Positions 804-34,397 of a DNA stretch of 64,000 nt are shown here, one piece after another. The DNA is from a virus, in the IMG/VR virus record IMGVR_UViG_3300033066_001842; one strand, written 5' to 3'. A program made the translations under genes and the position numbers. The first letter of the stretch is position 1, and each line of letters starts with the position of its first letter. The notes beneath the pieces were generated by a model. It was given only the letters and a program-made list of their open reading frames with translations, was not told the origin of the DNA and ran no database searches.

Positions 804-824
804 TAAGTGGGTTTGTAGTAGCAA

Positions 825-1250
825 TTGGGAAAACAGGGGTTTTGCAAACCTAAGTTGCCAGTTCAACTCTGGCCTTATCCACCAATATTTTTAGTGTTTA
901 AAGATAAAGAAAAAAGAAAAGCCTACGATACAAATTGGAATAATTTAAATAGGCAACGTAAAAGAGACATAAATAAGAAATGGAAAGCTAAACAGCAAGA
1001 AGCTTTCCAAAGTATTAAAAATTTGTATAAGTGTTATTTTTGTAGTGAAGCTAATTCAGTTTGTTTAGATTTTCATCATGTCAATCCGAAAACTAAAAAA
1101 TTTAATGTAGCTAAAATGTCTGGAAGTTTTAGTATGGAAAATCTACTTAACGAAATTTCAAAATGTGTTGTTCTCTGTGCCAACTGTCATAGAAAATTAC
1201 ATGCCAATCTTCTGCCTGATCCTTTCGATAATCCCACCCAAGGGATATAA
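825..1250 (+). CDS. HNH homing endonuclease
   Basis: CYFCSEANSVCLDFHHVNP...CANCHRKLH: HNH motif with paired Cys zinc knuckle; located inside the tRNA cluster. Confidence 0.7.
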   Translation: MGKQGFCKPKLPVQLWPYPPIFLVFKDKEKRKAYDTNWNNLNRQRKRDINKKWKAKQQEAFQSIKNLYKCYFCSEANSVCLDFHHVNPKTKKFNVAKMSGSFSMENLLNEISKCVVLCANCHRKLHANLLPDPFDNPTQGI

Positions 1251-4477: not shown

Positions 4478-5282
4478 CTACAACAAACTTACCATTATTA
4501 ATAATCACAACATAATCGTTAAAATTTCCATTTGGATAAACATACCCATAATTGAAACCATTAACAATTCTTGTCGGCTTATTTTTCAAAAATGTGGGAT
4601 TCAAATTACTTAAGCAAGGAATCGTAACACCTGTATGATAATCGGATGAGTCAAGACGGTTAATATCCGTATACGCATAATACGTATGAATGTGTCCAGC
4701 CCTAATCGATACCCTAGTTTGGTCAACCAAATATTTGGCAGGATTAACAACAGTATTTCGTCCATTTAATATAACATCCCCATGTACAAAATGAAGTTTC
4801 CCAAGCTTGAAAAACTCCCCTTGTTCATAAATTTTCCAGCCGACATCTCTTAAACTAAAATATGTTTCGGGTTCTAACATCCCTTGAAGTTGTGGGTGTT
4901 TCTCAACAAATTGATCTATCCAAACTTCATGATTACCTTTGAGCCAAACAAGTTCAGTACTAGAACTTTCTTGCAAAGGTACTAAGACATTATGATAAAA
5001 CCCATCCAACTCAGTCTTTAGTCTAAGCTTCTCTCTATATAGTGGTTTATCAGCATTCCAGTGTGAAATGCAACCGCAGTCCAATTGATCGCCACCTAAA
5101 ATAATAGTATCAGGTTCAAAGTCTTCAATAAACTCTAAAGCACTATTTAAAGCTTTTACATTGTGTGTTGTACAGAGTGTATCTTTCCCACCCTTTTTTC
5201 GCCATTCATGCCCATAGTGTATATCATATAAAGCTACAAATTTTTTCACTTCAGTACAATCTCCTGTTGGCAATGGGGACAA
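4455..5282 (-). CDS. calcineurin-like metallophosphoesterase
   Basis: ordered motifs DIHYGH, GGDQLD, GNHEVW, HFVHGD and GHIHT. Confidence 0.65.
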   Translation of the reverse strand: MSPLPTGDCTEVKKFVALYDIHYGHEWRKKGGKDTLCTTHNVKALNSALEFIEDFEPDTIILGGDQLDCGCISHWNADKPLYREKLRLKTELDGFYHNVLVPLQESSSTELVWLKGNHEVWIDQFVEKHPQLQGMLEPETYFSLRDVGWKIYEQGEFFKLGKLHFVHGDVILNGRNTVVNPAKYLVDQTRVSIRAGHIHTYYAYTDINRLDSSDYHTGVTIPCLSNLNPTFLKNKPTRIVNGFNYGYVYPNGNFNDYVVIINNGKFVVDGKMYGS

Positions 5283-5644
5283 TCTAGAATAAGTGGCGGA
5301 AGTTCGGAGCTACCCTGTAACAATTGGTCGGCTTGACCACTTGCAGGATATTTCCCACCCTTCAGTACGTCTTTCACATGTATATAGAAAGCCGCACACA
5401 CCAAAGCAAAAACAGCTTCCTCTGGTTGGATAATACCGTTGTCGATAAAATCCACGTAGGGAGCCATCATATCTTTGCTCATAGTTTGCAAACGTCTTGC
5501 GGCCAAAGCTACAAGCGGTTTGGGGAAAGAAGCTGGATTCCCACTCTTAATAACAGCATTATTTAGGGTGTCCCCAATATCCTTCTTACTATATTTCGGG
5601 ATTTGTAAGGCTTTATCAGCCTTGATCTTGTCTAATTTCTTCAT
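5246..5644 (-). CDS. hypothetical protein
   Basis: 132-aa ORF, same-strand block. Confidence 0.4.
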   Translation of the reverse strand: MKKLDKIKADKALQIPKYSKKDIGDTLNNAVIKSGNPASFPKPLVALAARRLQTMSKDMMAPYVDFIDNGIIQPEEAVFALVCAAFYIHVKDVLKGGKYPASGQADQLLQGSSELPPLILDCPHCQQEIVLK

Positions 5645-5987
5645 CTAGTAAACCTAATACATCCTTACTATACATATGGTCACGCCCATAGTATTGCAAT
5701 CCAATCCTCATACTAGCCAAGTTCAGCATCCCCAACATATTAAGTAGAAATTGTTCCTCAATATCTCTCTCGTGTTCCTCGTCCGTAGTGAGTCTAATCA
5801 TTGACCAATATTCATCATTAAACTCTTTCTCCAAAGTCTCCCAATTATCTTCTACAAATTTCTCAAGTTGGCCAATGTGGCGCGACACTACATAGGCTAG
5901 ATGCGCCGTAAAATCTTGTTTTGTTGGTTTATTCATCTTTTTTTCCAGTATACGTTGATAGAAACTCTTGTAGAATGAAGTCCTCAT
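5616..5987 (-). CDS. hypothetical protein
   Basis: 123-aa ORF. Confidence 0.4.
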   Translation of the reverse strand: MRTSFYKSFYQRILEKKMNKPTKQDFTAHLAYVVSRHIGQLEKFVEDNWETLEKEFNDEYWSMIRLTTDEEHERDIEEQFLLNMLGMLNLASMRIGLQYYGRDHMYSKDVLGLLDEEIRQDQG

Positions 5988-6798: not shown

Positions 6799-9630
6799 TT
6801 ATTTAATCCTCTTGATTTGAGCCCAGTTGGCTCCTCTATACATTTTCACAGGACACCAAAATCCTTTAATCCTCTTATCCTCTTGTTCCATAACCGAAAG
6901 AAACTCTATACATTGTTCGTCTGTCCAAACCTTTGGCTTCTCAAATACCAACTCATCGTGGACTTGCAAAAGTGGAACACCATCCATACCATACCTATCA
7001 AAGAAATTAATCATATCCCCTTGAACGTGATCGGCTGAAGTTCCTTGCCCCAAGAATGAAAACGCTTGTTTTGCACATTCCAAAGGCTCATCTTGCAATC
7101 TAATAAATCTACCAGTAGCAGCCTTTAGAATACCAGTTTTTTCAATCTCTTGCAATACCCTCTGTTGCCATTCCCGAATAATCTTAAACTTTCCAAAGTA
7201 TTTCCCTTCCAACAAATCATTAGCTTTGGCACGAGCCTCTAATGACGTATCTTTAAAAATACGTTGGGCCAAATTTACACCAGAAAAAGCAATAATTCCG
7301 CCAGCGTATTCCCAATCATAGTAGGGTACAATCGCCCCCATCTTAATTGCCGCTTTAATCTTGGGTTTAGCTAAGTCCTCTTCTCTCAATAAGATAATAC
7401 CTTCCCCATAATTGCTACCATGGGCCACAGATTTAGCTACCGCTCTCTCCGTTTTGCCCAACATCTTAGCGGCGTCTTTGAATGCCCCATCAGAAACGTT
7501 TACAATCCATTGGAAAGCATCTTTTTCAATCTTGTATGTATCAAATCCGGCATACCACATACAATTATGAGAATAAAAACCATTAGATATATAAGTTTTA
7601 GACGTAGTAGTAATGCAAACTAATGGTTGTGGATTATCATATTCTATAACATTTAATACAGTAGCTCGCCCCTCACCATTTTTACCCCAAGTTCTCTTAC
7701 CATTCCATATTTTTTTAGATTTTTGTAAAAGTCTCTCTGGCCTTTTTTCTCCTAAAAAACGCAAACTATTCCAGATACCTGTTAATTGTATTGTTTTATG
7801 TGTTTTTCTGTATTGAGGTTGTTTCTTTTTTATTGAAATAGAAAAATTAAAACAATCTTTATAAAGAAGTTTTTCTACTTTATCAAAAATAGGTCCATCA
7901 GCTTGCCCAAATTGCACTCCACCAGAAGAAACGCTACCTTCACCATCAAAAATACCAGCAATATACCCATCATTAAATTGTGTTTTTGTAGTCCAAGGTT
8001 CAGCAGTAAATGGTAAAATATCACCAGTTACAATATCTTTCATTTCTACCCAAACCCTAGATAAATAACCTTTTTTTGACTTACGCAAAACAACTACTAA
8101 ATGGTCATCAGCGGCAGTTAGACTACCTCTATTGGTTTCAATAGTAAAAGTTTTTTTTCTTAAGAACTGAAGGTCAGTAATAGAACTTTCTTTAAATCTA
8201 GTACCTCTATTTCCTTGATCTTGGTTTTCATCAAATCCAATCAATTTATCATCTACAAATAAATCTTTAGCATAAATCCAAGTTAAATCTTCTTTCAATA
8301 TTTTTGTGTAGGGATCTACGCACATACGGAATTCCAAATTGGACTTATCAGCTTTAATCAAACATTGGTCATCCCTTTTTGGAATAATAGCAACCCTGGC
8401 TTGAGCAAAGGGGGATTGTTCCTCTTGTGGTGTATCCTCATCATATCCAGGAATATTTTGGAAATTAGGATCTTTAGAACTAAAACGCCCAGTACTTGTA
8501 CCAATAACAATAAATCGCGGATGCATTAAACCGTCATCCCCGAAAAATTTATCGTCAAACCAACTCTTAAAGCCTTTACCCGCACCCTTGTATTGGTACG
8601 CTTTTATCAACAATTGATAGGGTAATGGGTGACTGTCAATTCCCTGTACAAATTCGGTGAGCCCAACATCATTATTATCGGCTAACTCTGTTAGGGCTTT
8701 TTCAATAGCTTCTGCATTAAATTTATCAAGAAAGATCTTGTGCTTTTTGAAATAGTTAACAGCAGCAGCAGGAGCATTAGGATTAAAATGTTCATATTTC
8801 TTAGTTTTTCCGCTCTGTGTATAGGGGAAAAGCTTTTCTTTTTCGTCATCGCTAATCTTATCCAATCTGGCAATTAGATCACGATCTACGCGAACTCCAC
8901 CCTTTTGCATCAAATGAGCAATATAGGAAACCTTCAAAAGATCCCGATAGAATTGATAGGGAACACCCTTCTCTTCCATCTCTTTCAGCATTTCTATAAA
9001 GCCCTCGCGTGCCACATAACTATCCATGGCATTGTAACCAAAGACTTTATGGCTTGGACAGGGGCCAGTACATGTGACGCCACGACACATTTTAAACTGA
9101 GGCAACCCACAATAGAATGTGTTCATTGTCCACAAATTAAGGAATCCTAAGCTTCCTTTTTCTCCACCAACCTTTCCCCCGCTACTCTGTTTCACCAAAT
9201 CCTGATTCAACAAAAAGTGGGTAATCATCCCATCTTCAAAGCAATCTAGGGAAATCTCTCGCCCAAGTACTTTCTCAATAACTTCTTTTTCAGCCCCAAT
9301 AACAGAATAGCCAACCAATCTAGTCATACCTAATTCCGCCACCTGTACAATAAAGTCTACAACTTCTTTACTGTAAGGGGCGGAGGCAGCTAAATTATGG
9401 TTGGCTAAACCTGTAATGGTTGGCTTATTAGTTTTGGGATCGAACTCAAAATCTATTCCCGTAAACTCAGAGGGATTCTCTAAAATTTCACGCAAATATT
9501 TATTCCCTTCGGCATACTTTGGCCAAAAGGATTTTCCATCAAGTGATTTCGAGTTCTCAATACTTGTGAAAAGATTTAACTGTACTTCACGATTCCCGTA
9601 AAGGTCTATCTCTTCGAATCTCTTTGACAT
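6799..9630 (-). CDS. family A DNA polymerase (Pol I-like) interrupted by an intein
   Basis: Pol A motif A DKSNLEFRM (cf. DYSQIELRI), motif B RAVAKSVAHGSNYGEG, motif C LQVHDELVF; the 943-aa length is inflated by a ~253-aa insert. Confidence 0.75.
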   Translation of the reverse strand: MSKRFEEIDLYGNREVQLNLFTSIENSKSLDGKSFWPKYAEGNKYLREILENPSEFTGIDFEFDPKTNKPTITGLANHNLAASAPYSKEVVDFIVQVAELGMTRLVGYSVIGAEKEVIEKVLGREISLDCFEDGMITHFLLNQDLVKQSSGGKVGGEKGSLGFLNLWTMNTFYCGLPQFKMCRGVTCTGPCPSHKVFGYNAMDSYVAREGFIEMLKEMEEKGVPYQFYRDLLKVSYIAHLMQKGGVRVDRDLIARLDKISDDEKEKLFPYTQSGKTKKYEHFNPNAPAAAVNYFKKHKIFLDKFNAEAIEKALTELADNNDVGLTEFVQGIDSHPLPYQLLIKAYQYKGAGKGFKSWFDDKFFGDDGLMHPRFIVIGTSTGRFSSKDPNFQNIPGYDEDTPQEEQSPFAQARVAIIPKRDDQCLIKADKSNLEFRMCVDPYTKILKEDLTWIYAKDLFVDDKLIGFDENQDQGNRGTRFKESSITDLQFLRKKTFTIETNRGSLTAADDHLVVVLRKSKKGYLSRVWVEMKDIVTGDILPFTAEPWTTKTQFNDGYIAGIFDGEGSVSSGGVQFGQADGPIFDKVEKLLYKDCFNFSISIKKKQPQYRKTHKTIQLTGIWNSLRFLGEKRPERLLQKSKKIWNGKRTWGKNGEGRATVLNVIEYDNPQPLVCITTTSKTYISNGFYSHNCMWYAGFDTYKIEKDAFQWIVNVSDGAFKDAAKMLGKTERAVAKSVAHGSNYGEGIILLREEDLAKPKIKAAIKMGAIVPYYDWEYAGGIIAFSGVNLAQRIFKDTSLEARAKANDLLEGKYFGKFKIIREWQQRVLQEIEKTGILKAATGRFIRLQDEPLECAKQAFSFLGQGTSADHVQGDMINFFDRYGMDGVPLLQVHDELVFEKPKVWTDEQCIEFLSVMEQEDKRIKGFWCPVKMYRGANWAQIKRIK
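7564..8322 (-). mobile_element. intein with LAGLIDADG homing endonuclease inside the DNA polymerase
   Basis: the insert starts at Cys (LEFRM|CVDPYTKI) right after Pol motif A and ends SHN|C (codons checked on the DNA: TAT TCT CAT AAT TGT); internal GYIAGIFDGEGSV LAGLIDADG-type motif. Confidence 0.65.
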
Positions 9631-13127: not shown

Positions 13128-13350
13128 CTTTTTCCTTTTCTAATTTTGCGTTTTCTTGGTTAAGTTTGTGTTTCAATTGTAGAAACTCACGATACTCTTC
13201 AATATCGTCAAGCTGTTTATACAATTTTTTCTTTTCTTTATATCTGAACGCTTGAAAAACTTTTTGTCCAGATAGTAGGGGATTAAAAACCTGATCGATG
13301 AAAAATACAACAATCAAAGCTATTCCAATTAATTCAACAAATTGGAGCAT
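13114..13350 (-). CDS. small membrane protein (overlaps the SPFH gene start; NfeD-like partner?)
   Basis: one TM helix IGIALIVVFFI then a charged coiled coil; 4-nt overlap with the downstream SPFH gene suggests translational coupling. Confidence 0.35.
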   Translation of the reverse strand: MLQFVELIGIALIVVFFIDQVFNPLLSGQKVFQAFRYKEKKKLYKQLDDIEEYREFLQLKHKLNQENAKLEKEKDALR

Positions 13351-13505
13351 ATTTTTTCCTTGTTTGAATTTTGAACTATATTTCGCAAATAGTAACAGAG
13401 GGTATTACCCTACCGCTCCCATATTGTAAAGAGCAATCAAACCTTTAGGGTTCTTTTACCCGTGGTGGGAGCAATAAACTATCGGCATCGGTTCAAAAAA
13501 GTTGT

Positions 13506-13638
13506 TGGATGGGGTGAGATTCGAACTCACAACCTCTCGTTTAGCATACGATAAAGTTAATCAAAACGGTTCAAATTTACGTTTGAACTAAAAGGTAGAC
13601 TAACAGTTTTTAGCGCTCTACCATTGAGCTACCCACCC
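13506..13638 (-). ncRNA. tRNA-like RNA with a ~70-nt insert replacing the anticodon arm (element E1)
   Basis: ends pair as a 7-bp acceptor stem GGGTGGG/CCCATCC; D-arm GCTC-AATGGTA-GAGC; T-arm GTGAG-TTCGAAT-CTCAC; discriminator A, no CCA; the insert has a CTAAAA/TTTTAG helix closing a 14-nt loop and a GTTCAAA/TTTGAAC hairpin. Confidence 0.45.
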
Positions 13639-13652
13639 ATAAAAAAATCGGA

Positions 13653-13781
13653 GATTGGTAAAGGGATTCGAACCCTTATTAGCGGCTCTGAATGCAATAA
13701 CCTTTATCTAGTCGGTTCTTATAGAACTAAAAAGGGCGACAAAGATGTTTTTACGCTGTCCTACCATTAGACGATACCAAT
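13653..13781 (-). ncRNA. tRNA-like RNA with a ~70-nt insert replacing the anticodon arm (element E2, paralogue of E1)
   Basis: acceptor ATTGGTA/TACCAAT perfect; D-arm GTCT-AATGGTA-GGAC; T-arm AAGGG-TTCGAAT-CCCTT; no CCA; the insert shares TAAAAAC, a 6-bp helix TAAAAA/TTTTTA closing a 14-nt loop, a GTTC-TATAA-GAAC hairpin and GAACCG with E1. Confidence 0.45.
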
Positions 13782-13856
13782 CATAAAAGAAAATAATTAG
13801 AACTAAAAAGGGCGAAAGAACGTTTTATTCACCACTTCCCCGTATTTGGAGCGCCT

Positions 13857-13930
13857 TTCCAGAATCGAACTGGATACCATTGTTTTGCAGACAATCGACT
13901 AACCATTTGTCTTAAAGTGCATATGGTGGG
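13857..13930 (-). tRNA. tRNA-Cys(GCA)
   Basis: acceptor GCACTTT/AAGGCGC (A3·C70 mismatch), perfect anticodon stem ATTGT/ACAAT with loop CTGCAAA, T-arm TCCAG-TTCGATT-CTGGA, CCA encoded. Confidence 0.65.
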
Positions 13931-13933
13931 GAA

Positions 13934-13961
13934 GGTAAGATTCGAACTTACTATTGATTAA
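13934..13961 (-). other. orphan tRNA 3' half (T-arm plus acceptor 3' strand plus CCA) with no matching 5' half
   Basis: minus-strand read GTAAG-TTCGAAT-CTTAC-CTTCCCC-A-CCA; no complementary GGGGAAG-type 5' strand within 130 nt upstream; the HNH gene starts 90 bp away. Confidence 0.3.
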
Positions 13962-14052
13962 TTATGAGTTAATTGTGTTTACCTATAATTCTTTCAAAGC
14001 GGTTCTAATCACTTTCTTATATCTCTATACTAACATAAATAATGGGAGCCCG

Positions 14053-14472
14053 TCAAGGATTCGATCTTCCATGTTCCCTAATTCTATGACAGTTGGCACA
14101 GAGAACAACACATTTTGAAATTTCGTCATTAAGTTTATCAATAGGACTTAAAGTCATATGACTTACATTATATTTCTTATCCAAAGCATCTAAATGGTGA
14201 AAATCCATTACATAAAAAGGAAATTTTTTATGACAATCGAAACAAGGTTTATTTTTAGCTTCCCTTATAATATTTCTATTTAGTGCTTGTTTTATAACAC
14301 GTTTAATAGCTATTTTTTCTAAACGTTTTTTATTAGTTTTACAATATAAACTATTATGATCTTTTTGACATTGTTTACACCAAGGCTGTTTATAAATTTT
14401 TCCACTTTTATAGCGCCTTATATTAAAACAAGTTAGAGCCTTATTTGTTTGACATCTATTACAAAACTTCAT
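14053..14472 (-). CDS. HNH homing endonuclease
   Basis: CFDCHKKFPFYVMDFHHLD...CANCHRIREH; the C-terminal half resembles the HNH at 825..1250. Confidence 0.7.
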   Translation of the reverse strand: MKFCNRCQTNKALTCFNIRRYKSGKIYKQPWCKQCQKDHNSLYCKTNKKRLEKIAIKRVIKQALNRNIIREAKNKPCFDCHKKFPFYVMDFHHLDALDKKYNVSHMTLSPIDKLNDEISKCVVLCANCHRIREHGRSNP

Positions 14473-14586: not shown

Positions 14587-14640
14587 ATAAATATGAGTCA
14601 AAGTCATTAGTCCTGCCAGTTGAACGAACGGGCCAAAACC

Positions 14641-15077: not shown

Positions 15078-15226
15078 AAAATCCTTTTATTAGCGGGGAG
15101 CCCGATATACCTTTTATGGACTCCCCTATAAGTTTTTGCTTAATAATTTGTAATCAGAGTAGCCCACCAACACTTGATGTTAATCGTTTTGTTCTACCGC
15201 TGAACTACTCCCGCATAAATATTTTG

Positions 15227-15256
15227 GGGCGGGAGCTTGGATTTGAACCAAGGCAT
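15227..15256 (-). other. second orphan tRNA 3' half, possibly the 3' end of a ~150-nt tRNA-like RNA extending to about 15377
   Basis: minus-strand read CTTGG-TTCAAAT-CCAAG-CTCCCGC-C-CCA; the best upstream partner, GCGGGTT at 15371-15377, gives only 5 of 7 pairs; TTTAAAAACTG motif inside, as in E1/E2. Confidence 0.25.
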
Positions 15257-15408
15257 AAACTTTAGAGTTGTCAGTTGATCTCTTTTGTAATTAAAAGCAG
15301 GTGAACCTTCGGGGTAAAAAGTTAAACTTAAAACATTTCAGTTTTTAAATCTAAACTTTAGCCTGAAGTTAGAAAGGGAAACCCGCTAGGGCTCCCTCCC
15401 CGAAATCG

Positions 15409-16520: not shown

Positions 16521-18212
16521 TTAATCTTCGTCTTCAGTTAAGGCTTTTTCCGAATTAAACGCATGAATTACACTTGTTACATTCGGATCAAATCCCGTTA
16601 CATCCAACGAATAAGGATCACTATCACTAGCAAAACCAGCAACACCATAACCAGTAGACTGCATACCAAGAGACATCAATCTCGTTTTGGGCTTATTCAT
16701 AAGTTTACGATAATTTTGCGTTAATGTCAAGGGGTGTTCCCCTGTATTGAAATCGTTATCGGTGATATGAATGAAGCAATCCACGTCTTGCTTGTTCTTG
16801 ATAGCATGTTTAATTGGTAAACCTGCATCAGTGTAACCCGTATTATATTTTTTGGCTTTTGTAATAGCCGTTGAAATATTGTCGGTTTTGGTCAATGGCA
16901 AGTCATTCAGAACACTAGAGAAACATTTGACATCACACCATGGTTCTCTTTTTACAATGGTAAGGGCGATTGTGGCGGCGGCTTCACAGAAAGACATTAA
17001 ACCGTTCGCCATCATGCTAGACATTGAGCGCGAAACGTCAACAGAAACCATAAAGTTTTTGCCAGTAGCGGGGGCAACATCGAAAGAGTTGTTGAAAGCT
17101 TCTTCCAAAGCTTCTTGAATTTTGGGAACAGGTTTCCAGGTTAATGAACCTTTCAAACCTTGTCCTTTTCCATAAGTGCGCAGAGCAAACAAAAGTTTAA
17201 GAGGGTGAATTCCAGCTTTTGTCAATTGCTCAATATTGGTAAGGCGACGTACAACCGTTTTGACATCCTCATTAGTTCCTGAAAGTAAACCACTCGCAGT
17301 TAATGAAGAAAGTTGGCGAACGGTTGCCATGTATGGCATTTTCGCAAGTAGGGCTTGTTGAACTTGAGGCACATTTTTAAACCATGTGGGAATCATTTCA
17401 TGGGTCATATCGGTAGCCCCAATCAATTCCACAAGACGTTTAATTTGTGCGTCAGATTTTTCATTTTCTTTCCATGATTGGATTTCAATGAAAGCTTCAA
17501 TCTGGCGTCCCCCCTTTGTCAAAATTTTAGGATCAATATCGGCTAAAGCTTTTAAAACTCCAGCTTCATTTCCATTAACCACATAATTAATGAAAGAGTT
17601 TGTAATTGATCCTTGAAACTCAGGGTGGGAAAGGCGAAGTAAGTCCTGGTGCGACCAACCATCACGTTGACGATACTTCAATAATTGATAAACCAGTGAG
17701 TCAAATGACTTATCGGTGTACCAGTCACCTACATAACGTTTCAACATGCGGCCCCATCCACGCATTCCCGTAACAATTTCCGCAAAGTGAAATAAATCAG
17801 TACCAGTATTGGCAACATGTTTTAGTTCATTGAGGAACATATCACGAACAGTACGACTAGGATGCGATGCGCCTAGAGCCAAAGTATATAACATTGGTTC
17901 TTTTGTAAGAGCACGACGTTGGCTTGAAATTTCTCGAATCTTTTGAACAACTTCTTTGGGGAAATTTTGAATCATCGCTCGGATGTTCGCCGTATTTTGG
18001 GCCAAGAGTTGTTGCGATCCTACAGCAAAGGTATGATTTTCCACACCCAAGATAAGGAATTTTTCGAGAAACTGTTCAGGAGTAAGTTTCAGTGAGTATC
18101 CGCCCCCAAAATTAGGAACAGAGAACTTTGCATTTTTCCCCGTAACAGGTTTTGTTACAGGATTGCTTTTTGCAGTTTTGTTTTTCTTTTGAGAGTAAGT
18201 AGAAATGGGCAT
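16521..18212 (-). CDS. Ro60/Rsr-like protein (TROVE domain plus C-terminal vWA)
   Basis: 563 aa; ~370-aa N-terminal helical-repeat region followed by a vWA fold with MIDAS VSVDVSRSMS (DxSxS); size and domain order match Ro60 orthologues. Confidence 0.55.
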   Translation of the reverse strand: MPISTYSQKKNKTAKSNPVTKPVTGKNAKFSVPNFGGGYSLKLTPEQFLEKFLILGVENHTFAVGSQQLLAQNTANIRAMIQNFPKEVVQKIREISSQRRALTKEPMLYTLALGASHPSRTVRDMFLNELKHVANTGTDLFHFAEIVTGMRGWGRMLKRYVGDWYTDKSFDSLVYQLLKYRQRDGWSHQDLLRLSHPEFQGSITNSFINYVVNGNEAGVLKALADIDPKILTKGGRQIEAFIEIQSWKENEKSDAQIKRLVELIGATDMTHEMIPTWFKNVPQVQQALLAKMPYMATVRQLSSLTASGLLSGTNEDVKTVVRRLTNIEQLTKAGIHPLKLLFALRTYGKGQGLKGSLTWKPVPKIQEALEEAFNNSFDVAPATGKNFMVSVDVSRSMSSMMANGLMSFCEAAATIALTIVKREPWCDVKCFSSVLNDLPLTKTDNISTAITKAKKYNTGYTDAGLPIKHAIKNKQDVDCFIHITDNDFNTGEHPLTLTQNYRKLMNKPKTRLMSLGMQSTGYGVAGFASDSDPYSLDVTGFDPNVTSVIHAFNSEKALTEDED

Positions 18213-34317: not shown

Positions 34318-34397
34318 GGCCCTGTACCGCCCTCGCCTTCTAAGCGTGAAAAGCGTAACGGATGAAAATGTGGGTTCGAATCCCTCCAGGGCTTCCA
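34318..34397 (+). tRNA. atypical tRNA-like gene, anticodon arm consistent with Arg(UCU), no canonical D-arm
   Basis: acceptor GGCCCTG/CAGGGCT (G·U at 1-72), T-arm GTGGG-TTCGAAT-CCCTC, CCA encoded; anticodon arm CTCGC-CTTCTAA-GCGTG sits only 5 nt after position 9, then a 21-nt unstructured stretch precedes the T-arm. Confidence 0.3.

Follow-up and report, generated by a model that had tools for sequence, protein, structure and literature searches.

A phage Ro60 locus with two probable Y-RNA-like tRNA mimics in unpermuted tRNA order

Two tandem elements, E1 and E2, on the minus strand of a 64,000-nt one-strand stretch of the IMG/VR virus record IMGVR_UViG_3300033066_001842 (the window; coordinates count from its first letter) are most probably YrlA-type Y-RNA-like tRNA mimics built in normal tRNA order, not circularly permuted, a reading to which we assign a probability of about 0.75 from comparison of sequences. 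An earlier note on this DNA had proposed two explanations for the elements, a non-permuted Y-RNA-like tRNA mimic tied to Ro60, or a new class of interrupted tRNA processed to an ordinary tRNA. The first is upheld by the homology of the halves of E1 to permuted relatives, by covariation of a helix, P_Y1, in units of both topologies, and by the recurrence of the form beside Ro60, so that homology and covariation supply the support for it entirely. The second gained no support, given that the inserted module is also found in permuted relatives and that E2 has no anticodon hairpin. We therefore consider it essentially right to describe E1 and E2, as judged from their sequences, as a new topological variant of a known RNA family, and as neither a new RNA class nor interrupted tRNAs.

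YrlA RNAs were defined as Ro60-linked tRNA mimics in a survey from which every hit that overlapped tandem tRNA genes was excluded (Chen et al. 2014, PMC4201824). In Mycobacterium smegmatis, YrlA carries an acceptor stem of 7 bp; RNase P cleaves the RNA and CCA is added to it in vivo, which leaves two base-paired halves (PMC4201824). YrlA RNAs are circularly permuted tRNA mimics without a free CCA end, for which an origin from a dimeric tRNA was proposed, and the possibility was raised that some of them are processed to look more tRNA-like (Wang et al. 2018, bioRxiv 10.1101/312249). Y-like RNAs next to a phage-encoded Ro60 have been described for mycobacteriophages and for Thermus phage phiLo, whose RNAs bind the phage Ro60 and the host PNPase (PMC12135203). 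No description of an unpermuted single-chain Y RNA form was found in the literature searched, the coverage of which was incomplete.

The window derives from a phage, since it encodes an SU10-type portal and adaptor, a family A DNA polymerase, nicotinamide adenine dinucleotide salvage genes, and more than 22 tRNAs; the INPHARED phage collection held no close relative of it, and blastn returned nothing useful there. The E2-E1 array region (711 bp) recurs with 100% identity in three other assemblies, of which two come from independent sequencing runs, and is thus not an assembly artefact. As the earlier note had stated, a Ro60/TROVE orthologue lies upstream on the same strand, with its stop codon 2.7 kb from the start of E2 (13781), within the ∼4 kb criterion used for YrlA. 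The protein and the parts of the two elements are as follows.

16521..18212, minus strand: Ro60 orthologue, 563 aa (Pfam vWA_Ro60 1e-36, TROVE 4e-27), presumed protein partner of E1 and E2
13506..13638, minus strand: E1, candidate tRNA-order Y-RNA-like element, 133 nt (Rfam tRNA 48.8 bits; covariance model R1, described below, 99.0 bits at full length)
13632..13638, minus strand: E1 acceptor 5' strand GGGUGGG, pairing with CCCAUCC at 13507..13513 (7/7, including G3:U70)
13615..13629, minus strand: E1 D-arm GCUC-AAUGGUA-GAGC (sequence, Rfam tRNA alignment and covariation alignment)
13605..13614, minus strand: E1 conserved junction GCUAAAAACU, containing the near-invariant GCUAAAAAC
13556..13604, minus strand: E1 Ro-stem arm, homologous to the open terminal stem of the unit at L125:13700-13850
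13537..13551, minus strand: E1 'V' or anticodon-arm-like hairpin UCGU-AUGCUAA-ACGA (4 bp, 7-nt loop; 93% paired in the covariation alignment, 3/4 pairs with double changes)
13514..13530, minus strand: E1 T-arm GUGAG-UUCGAAU-CUCAC (Rfam tRNA, model R1 and covariation alignment)
13506, minus strand: E1 discriminator A (read from sequence)
13653..13781, minus strand: E2, candidate tRNA-order Y-RNA-like element, 129 nt (model R1, 48.1 bits end to end)
13775..13781 and 13654..13660, minus strand: E2 acceptor AUUGGUA / UACCAAU (7/7 Watson-Crick)
13758..13772, minus strand: E2 D-arm GUCU-AAUGGUA-GGAC (sequence)
13700..13757, minus strand: E2 junction AGCGUAAAAAC and Ro-stem arm (per-sequence duplex test, folding)
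13661..13677, minus strand: E2 T-arm AAGGG-UUCGAAU-CCCUU (sequence)

The description of the elements in the earlier note proved accurate in most respects. Each acceptor helix is formed over 7 bp by the element's own ends (7/7 in both, with one G3:U70 in E1), and the pairing is specific, in that the 3' strand of E2 matches the 5' strand of E1 at only 3/7 positions and random 7-mers of the window pair 7/7 at P ∼0.001. Textbook D-arms (loop AATGGTA) and T-arms (TTCGAAT) are present in both elements, and the anticodon arm is replaced by a long insert, so that 84 nt in E1 and 80 nt in E2 separate the D stem from the T stem, versus 23 in a tRNA, a surplus of ∼60 nt each. The motifs TAAAAAC, GTTC..GAAC and GAACCG are common to the two inserts, and neither element encodes CCA, in contrast to 22/22 ordinary tRNAs of the window, E1 being followed by ACA and E2 by UCC. 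The claim that no plausible anticodon stem-loop exists holds for E2, in which none was seen, but not for E1, where the small V hairpin had been overlooked. The elements are separated by a 14-nt spacer; all arms, P_Y1, and the tertiary pairs U8:A14 and A15:U48 are intact in both of them.

In the Ro-stem arm of E1, P_Y1 (GUUAGUC/GAUUAAC) is followed by an internal loop (UACCUUUUA / CGUUUU, with GAACCG) and by the distal hairpin GUUCAAA-CGUAAA-UUUGAAC. The arm of E2 has a 9-bp P_Y1 (AUCUUUGUC/GAUAAAGGU), the internal loop GCCCUUUUUA / CGACUA and the distal hairpin GUUC-UAUAA-GAAC, and its CUUUGUCGCC agrees with the Rfam YrlA 3'-strand consensus 'cUuGucGcc'. The homology-derived fold of E1 has an energy of -34.6 kcal/mol versus -37.1 for the minimum free energy fold (a gap of 2.5), and for E2 the gap to the minimum is 6.3 kcal/mol. 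The best tRNA matches of the tRNA parts of E2, to the window's tRNA-Glu (41/52) and to the tRNA-Gln of a related contig, L131 (39/52), are not decisive.

ARAGORN called neither E1 nor E2, and the Rfam models gave a mixed outcome: the tRNA model (RF00005) found E1 at 48.8 bits, solely by way of a 74-nt local insertion that replaces the anticodon arm, and had no match to E2. The complete cloverleaf of RF00005, with a 5-bp/7-nt anticodon arm at positions 27-43, is absent from both elements. ARAGORN found no tmRNA in the window, and the sole tmRNA signal was an 11-bit match on the T-arm. No intron family, group I or II, was matched at E<=10 over 13350..13950 by cmscan against Rfam, and with ∼60 nt the insert is indeed too short for a group I intron.

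The identity of the insert emerged from related loci, reached via a Ro60 protein search (409 homologues with E<=1e-20) and the contigs encoding the homologues, which are labelled here with L-numbers; a Ro60-based related-locus search of viral contigs gave one weak match. Seven syntenic contigs (L124, L125, L126, L127, L128, L131 and L132), with Ro60 at 47-53% identity, have in common with the window the gene order AAA_24, Ro60, (DUF7873), gene-free RNA region, UDG, PolA, and their gene-free regions downstream of Ro60 hold a tRNA-Gln and several Y-RNA-like units. The order in these units is T-arm, acceptor 3' strand, NCCA/AACA, short loop, acceptor 5' strand, D-arm, GCUAAAAAC. The clearest of them, L125:13700-13850, with copies in L124, L127, L128 and L131, starts with the terminal stem strand UAUUCUGA, GUCCG.., the helix strand AUUUAAGC, GUUAUCG, the hairpin AUCGU-AUGUCAA-ACGAG, and AGGUU, continues through the T-arm, the acceptor 3' strand CCGCUCC, A-ACA, the short loop, the acceptor 5' strand GGGGCGG, UA, and the D-arm, and after this ends with GCUAAAAAAC, the helix strand GCUUGAAU, ..UUUUAA, and the terminal stem strand UCAGAAUA. 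Its layout is the circularly permuted tRNA-mimic order published for YrlA, and with 33.3 bits (E=2.5e-5) against Rfam YrlA, the core of the relatives' permuted unit stays short of the gathering score of 69.

The two halves of E1 recur in these units in swapped order, with 78-87% identity to the pieces of the permuted unit in the closest Ro60-encoding relatives. The 5' half of E1 (acceptor 5' strand, D-arm, GCUAAAAAC, GUUAGUC, ..UUUUAGUUC) is 77-87% identical to the relatives' 3' pieces, and its 3' half (GAACCG.., GAUUAAC, UUUAUCG, hairpin, AGGUU, T-arm, acceptor 3' strand, A-ACA) matches their 5' pieces at 73-85% identity, which indicates that E1 is a circular permutation of the relatives' unit, back to tRNA order. 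The relatives' open terminal stem corresponds to the 7-bp stem that is capped by CGUAAA in E1, and their closed acceptor hairpin corresponds to the open end of E1. Against tRNA-order units from elsewhere, the 3' half of E1 shows just 62-68% identity; being nearer to the permuted units of its own lineage than to foreign tRNA-order units, it suggests that the topology changed more than once in evolution. G3:U70 and A73 are kept in E1 and its orthologues, and while the 'anticodon' of the V loop varies among orthologues (GCU, GUC, GCC, GUU, and one 8-nt loop), the Ala-type acceptor is constant. The 3' piece of the L131 unit is identical at 27/28 positions to the 5' end of Escherichia coli tRNA-Ala.

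Two further observations concern the permuted units. Their acceptor hairpin (L125:13756-13799, also in L127 and L131; ..CUCC-A-ACA, spacer, UAU-GGGGCGG-UA) gave a weak 24-bit match to the Rfam tmRNA_permuted model, which fits a tRNA-Ala-like acceptor processed into two pieces. A candidate topological intermediate in L186/L202, in which the acceptor 5' strand seemed to pair both ways, was rejected, as it is really a permuted unit followed by an ordinary tRNA with the same acceptor sequence.

To find further units, contigs were scanned for the conserved D-arm/junction string and the units were sorted by the position of the acceptor partner. In 27 matches, some of them on duplicate contigs, the partner lay upstream with an adjoining T-loop, as in the permuted form, and clean tRNA-order units were present in L138, L165 (=L194), L175, L179 and L192. 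Six of these foreign tRNA-order units (from L138, L165, L175, L179 and L192), with no window sequence among them, were used to build the covariance model R1, which runs in full from acceptor, D-arm and GCUAAAAAC through the long arm, GUUAUCG, V hairpin and AGGUY to T-arm and acceptor. R1 aligned to E1 over its full length at 99.0 bits (E=3.7e-25). The match to E2 was also full length but weak (48.1 bits, E=2.7e-11), with UUAUUGC for UUAUCG and the V hairpin absent.

The same model revealed arrays of such units: four directly upstream of Ro60 in L179 (2513-3045; two alternating subtypes, CCA encoded in two units), three clear units and a fourth candidate directly upstream of Ro60 in L165, and two in L175. 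Scanning genomes brought in L354, which has the unit sequence of L179 and is a contig binned to a Leptolyngbyaceae metagenome-assembled genome (MAG), and L355, with two units just downstream of Ro60; the L355 array (5040-5728) lies within a block of ∼35 tRNA hits on a contig that is binned to a Polyangiaceae MAG and that may itself be viral, given these tRNA hits. The cyanobacterial and myxobacterial clades of these two bins yielded few YrlAs in the 2014 survey (Chen et al., PMC4201824). The tRNA-order architecture thus occurs in at least six contigs beyond the window (L138, L165, L175, L179/L354, L192 and L355), often in tandem, and Ro60 adjoins it on the same strand at L165, L179/L354 and L355, making four independent loci with the window.

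Covariation was assessed in an alignment of 11 tRNA-order units and bears out the structural conservation that the earlier note had wished to see in homologues. In this alignment, 93% of cells are paired and 20/27 pairs show double changes, a result reached by 0/500 shuffles, while slid partners give 42-55% pairing. The acceptor helix is 100% paired, with double (compensatory) changes at 7/7 pairs. At the Levitt pair 15:48, which covaries, 5 units have A:U, 5 have G:C and 1 has A.G; U8:A14 is invariant.

The module that replaces the anticodon arm has its own conserved anatomy. GCUAAAAAC is near-invariant in ∼45 units of both topologies, in which it forms an unpaired junction, and is similar to 'aAaAcU' in the 3' strand of the Rfam YrlA consensus. 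In 26/26 units of both topologies, P_Y1 (6-10 bp) opens right after AAAAAC and ends 22-25 nt before the T stem. P_Y1 sequences are unrelated between units, and the mean duplex energy is -9.6 kcal/mol with the own partner versus -4.7 with non-self partners (26 units); this per-sequence duplex test was used because MAFFT alignments misregister P_Y1 and so undercount the helix (78% paired). The 6-bp helix of the earlier note, CTAAAA/TTTTAG in one element and TAAAAA/TTTTTA in the other, is not conserved and had to be abandoned: its U-run partner is missing in L138, L175, L179 and L355, GCUAAAAAC is invariant and unpaired, and the true, covarying helix, P_Y1, begins directly after it. Loose motif scans of viral contigs (TAAAAAC..TTTTAGTTC and TTTTAGTTC..GAACCG) gave AT-rich chance matches only, with no tRNA arms nearby.

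Beyond P_Y1 lies the internal loop, followed by the capped distal stem. The GAACCG side of the loop aligns with GGGCCGA, GGCCGAAG or GGGCCGAAUG of other units, and some tRNA-order units have a canonical GGGCCGAAUG or GGCCGAAG inside the capped stem. Chen et al. 2014 (PMC4201824) suggested GNCGAAN0-1G as the motif that Ro60 contacts, and the loop site aligned to it reads GAACCGUUUUG in E1, GAACCGACUAG in E2, and GGGCCGAUGG, GGCCGAAGAAUG or GGGCCGAAUG in other tRNA-order units. The covarying V hairpin of E1 is the counterpart of the 'V' stem-loop described in the same paper (PMC4201824).

Several results weigh against a Y-RNA-like identity for E1 and E2. The best Rfam YrlA (RF02553) match reaches 26.6 bits (E=0.0018, 13704..13593) against a gathering score of 69, and its alignment crosses the E2/E1 junction and does not cover one element. 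The tRNA-order form occurs in 0/7 of the closest relatives. R1 scores up to 51 bits on ordinary tRNAs, only with 67-68 model positions deleted, and E2 scores no better than some of these. E2 has no V hairpin, and in folding its junction can be closed by AGCG/CGCU instead. The published GNCGAAN0-1G is not matched exactly, E1 having ACCGUU and E2 ACCGAC, and the GAACCG variant, with four copies in the window array, is kept within this phage only. Finally, no Ro60 was present in the examined flanks of L138, L175 and L192.

The possibility was considered that E1 and E2 are tRNA mimics independent of Ro60, serving as decoys for host tRNA-targeting nucleases or tRNA-binding enzymes, or as chargeable RNAs, with an incidental Ro60 linkage. 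The elements do lie inside a tRNA cluster, E1 has the AlaRS identity set of G3:U70 and A73, 27 of 28 positions of the relatives' module agree with the 5' end of E. coli tRNA-Ala, and V loops resemble anticodon loops. We nevertheless regard this explanation as unlikely, as the non-tRNA module is common to units that match Rfam YrlA below threshold, and tRNA-order units adjoin a same-strand Ro60 at the four independent loci named above (window, L165, L179/L354 and L355); moreover, such roles are compatible with Ro60 binding, and both could coexist.

It seems slightly less probable again that the two elements are chimeras without function, decaying remnants of duplication or recombination in a rearranged Y-RNA array. 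This would agree with the closest relatives holding permuted units only, with the off-consensus Ro motif, and with the odd pieces of the array (a unit with a nested tRNA-Cys, a degenerate last unit, and a truncated tRNA-Gln-like fragment, all described below). However, the acceptor sequences of E1 and E2 are unrelated and yet both perfectly paired, neither element has lost an arm, U8:A14, A15:U48 or P_Y1, the array retains four copies of GAACCG, and the same architecture is found in at least six other contigs, often in tandem beside Ro60.

That the elements are interrupted tRNA genes, from which host or phage enzymes would remove the ∼60-nt intron-like insert to leave an ordinary decoding tRNA, is highly improbable. 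Removing positions 27-86 from E1 does give a 72-nt cloverleaf with the hairpin AUCGU-AUGCUAA-ACGAG, including U33, the 'anticodon' GCU and A37, and the same cluster has an HNH endonuclease gene, but this gene lies outside E1 and E2. The region has no Rfam group I or II intron match, self-splicing introns are far larger than ∼60 nt, and we know of no bacterial enzyme that splices at tRNA position 26/27. The same module and hairpin are found in permuted relatives, where splicing could not yield a tRNA; the loop 'anticodon' differs among orthologues while the Ala-type acceptor is unchanged; E2 has no such hairpin; and the insert holds conserved Y-RNA motifs and a covarying helix. Least credible is a functional permuted YrlA unit spanning the junction (E2 T-arm, spacer, E1 D-arm), with the tRNA-order elements a mere by-product of tandem permuted units, since, although the Rfam YrlA match (26.6 bits, E=0.0018) lies at 13704..13593 and the E2/E1 junction is positionally equal to the relatives' acceptor hairpin, the would-be acceptor UACCAAU/GGGUGGG pairs at 3/7 against 7/7 for the own ends, on which ground this permuted reading was ruled out, the cross P_Y1 duplex is out of register at -6.0 kcal/mol versus -7.1 and -8.5 for the own partners, the full-length tRNA-order model fits E1 at 99 bits, and such false YrlA hits from tandem tRNA-like genes had been warned of (Chen 2014, PMC4201824).

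If E1 and E2 are Y-RNA-like mimics in tRNA order, each would combine a tRNA core (7-bp acceptor, D-arm, T-arm, the U8:A14 and 15:48 pairs, and in E1 also the small V hairpin) with a Y module in the place of the anticodon arm, made up of the unpaired GCUAAAAAC, P_Y1, an internal loop with GAACCG opposite CCUUUUUA, and a capped stem. The internal loop may be the homologue of the putative Ro60-binding GNCGAA loop, to judge from its alignment. The units would be co-transcribed with the tRNA and Y-RNA cluster that follows Ro60 on the minus strand, and RNase P would then cut at G+1 of E1 and A+1 of E2; both 5' ends are preceded by U-rich ..UUAU(G), as in the relatives. The 3' ends would be trimmed and CCA possibly added, by analogy with M. 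smegmatis YrlA. Phage Ro60 could then bind the long arm, and the tRNA-like module might recruit, or shield against, host factors such as PNPase or tRNA enzymes, as the Ro60-Y RNA-PNPase complex may suggest. Because the acceptor is open in tRNA order, free tRNA-like ends are expected, and a unit made of one chain, its Ro stem capped and its 3' end of tRNA type, would amount to the RNase P-cleaved two-piece form with one exposed end fewer. A change of topology would have taken place inside this phage lineage, for which the simplest route is that two-piece units in a tandem array were duplicated and fused.

The AlaRS identity set consists of G3:U70 and A73. Since E1 keeps all of it, a CCA-tailed E1 is predicted, by AlaRS rules and as a prediction only, to be chargeable with alanine. 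It is conceivable, though rather doubtful, that E1-type RNAs are true tRNA/Y-RNA chimeras with working tRNA ends. In that case, E1 would be a chargeable, exonuclease-protected Y RNA that ties Ro60 to the tRNA or translation machinery, and in the E2-E1 tandem one would see a surviving case of the 'dimeric tRNA' state that the Wolin laboratory proposed as the origin of YrlA, or else a sign that the family flips its order repeatedly. As earlier surveys dropped hits that overlap tandem tRNA genes, the tRNA-order form may then also be the missing Y RNA of clades such as cyanobacteria and deltaproteobacteria, in which YrlA was hard to find.

Other putative Y-like units flank the two elements. The minus-strand cluster runs in the order U_e, tRNA-Gln, HNH endonuclease gene, U_a (with a nested tRNA-Cys), E2, E1, U_d, the neighbours being the following.

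15090..15320, minus strand: U_e, permuted YrlA-like unit between the DUF7873 gene and tRNA-Gln, by eye like L125:13300-13400
14053..14472, minus strand: HNH endonuclease gene separating tRNA-Gln from the Y-RNA array (phrog_2255, E=1e-26)
13800..14005, minus strand: U_a, permuted Y-like unit (read from sequence)
13373..13494, minus strand: U_d, last array unit (read from sequence)

Promoter and terminator scans gave nothing above chance, with a single promoter-like site at 14056..14027, upstream of U_a. U_a consists of GAACCG.., a T-arm at 13935..13951, the acceptor 3' strand CUUCCCC with ACCA, tRNA-Cys at 13847..13920, the acceptor 5' strand GGGGAAG at 13835..13841, and ..UUCUUUCGCCCUUUUUAGUUC; its acceptor pairs at 7/7 and GAAAGAA/UUCUUUC forms 7 bp. 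As a complete tRNA-Cys occupies its acceptor loop, excision of the tRNA would necessarily split U_a in two. By eye U_a resembles L124:4100-4260, and the matching unit in L124 and L128 has just an 11-nt loop with no tRNA. U_d comprises GAACCG..UUUAUUGC, the 7-bp GCUCCCA/UGGGAGC, a degenerate T-like hairpin UAGGG-UAAUA-CCCUC, and the end ..UAUAGUUC, and has the GAACCG and UUAUUGC motifs in common with E2. A nested outer element enclosing E2 and E1 (GTGGTG/CACCAC) was considered and rejected, as the flanking half-motifs belong to the separate units U_a and U_d. U_e carries the canonical CGAA motif CCCCGAAGG at 15306..15314, the T-arm CUUGG-UUCAAAU-CCAAG at 15236..15252, the acceptor strands CUCCCGC with CCCA and, after a loop, GCGGGAG at 15208..15214, and a D-arm; R1 matched it weakly (15092..15214, 20.3 bits), and Rfam did not detect it at E<=1.

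The HNH gene looks like a mobile, homing-type gene within the RNA cluster. Open reading frames of similar size and appearance follow tRNA-Gln in L124 (3317-3724) and L127 (6393-6794), and not in L125, L128 or L131. At ∼14590..14640 on the minus strand, directly upstream of the intact tRNA-Gln(UUG), another tRNA-Gln seems to be present by its 5' half only (..CGUUCAACUGGCAGGACUAAUGACUUUGACUCAU..); with no T-arm and no acceptor 3' strand, it is probably the relic of a truncated tRNA. Elsewhere in the window, the family A DNA polymerase reading frame (6799..9630, minus strand) has 943 aa with a weak LAGLIDADG_3 match at residues 554-609, whereas complete PolA proteins of the relatives have 584 and 689 aa, which suggests an intein or an inserted homing endonuclease. 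A tRNA-like element at 34318..34394 on the plus strand, upstream of tRNA-Phe, has the acceptor GGCCCUG/CAGGGCC, a T-arm, an aberrant D/anticodon region and no CCA, and was matched by R1 only (21.4 bits). A probable tRNA-Ala(UGC) at 809..884 on the plus strand, with G3:U70 and two acceptor U-U mismatches, is missed by ARAGORN and scores 35.5 bits with Rfam.

A single-chain form in tRNA order would give the Y RNA family natural tRNA termini, so that RNase P processing, CCA addition and aminoacylation become directly testable, and it is relevant to the idea that YrlA arose from tandem tRNAs. Covariance models and filters adjusted to the permuted layout would miss part of the family, the Rfam YrlA model being blind to tRNA-order units and the 2014 survey having dropped tandem-tRNA hits. 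For phage biology, the locus adds to the evidence for whole arrays of Ro60 partner RNAs within phage tRNA clusters.

Among known systems, YrlA (RF02553; Salmonella Typhimurium, M. smegmatis and mycobacteriophages) is like E1 and E2 in having its gene within 4 kb of Ro60 on the same strand, a tRNA-like D-arm, T-arm and acceptor stem with the tRNA tertiary pairs, and, in place of the anticodon stem, a long stem with the presumed Ro60 site and an AAAAAC-type 3'-strand motif; an optional 'V' stem-loop lies 5' of the T-arm, as in E1, and processed M. smegmatis YrlA has the same open acceptor end. YrlA differs in being permuted, with its ends forming the Ro stem and its acceptor a closed hairpin or in two pieces, whereas E1 and E2 would be single chains with an open acceptor and a capped Ro stem, and it has the GNCGAAN0-1G motif where E1 and E2 have GAACCG and fall under the Rfam gathering score. 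The phiLo RNAs Yrl1 and Yrl2 likewise adjoin a phage Ro60 gene as Y-RNA-like genes, but are described as stem-bulge-stem RNAs with a CGAA motif, with no tRNA-like module mentioned (PMC12135203). The permuted tRNA genes of Cyanidioschyzon merolae (in bioRxiv 10.1101/312249) illustrate that a tRNA shape can be encoded in either order, with the acceptor opened by RNase P or RNase Z, but they are true tRNAs matured by a splicing endonuclease and ligase, whereas E1 and E2 would represent the reverse change relative to the Y family, with no decoding expected. The Ro60-bound Yrn1 of Deinococcus radiodurans has a T-arm-like element, and its T and D elements run in the tRNA direction from the 5' end, as in E1 and E2; it has the Ro stem at the acceptor position and a closed anticodon-like arm, in contrast to the open acceptor of E1 and E2 and their Ro stem at the anticodon/position-26 side. 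Genes for tmRNA occur in a one-piece and in a two-piece, circularly permuted order (Rfam tmRNA and tmRNA_permuted), so that there, as in the Y-like family described here, one RNA family has a standard and a permuted order, and processing at a tRNA-Ala-like acceptor (G3:U70, ..CCA, spacer, GGGG..) turns permuted tmRNA into two base-paired pieces. E1 and E2 differ from tmRNA in being without a tag reading frame or pseudoknots, and in having Ro60, not SmpB, as the presumed partner.

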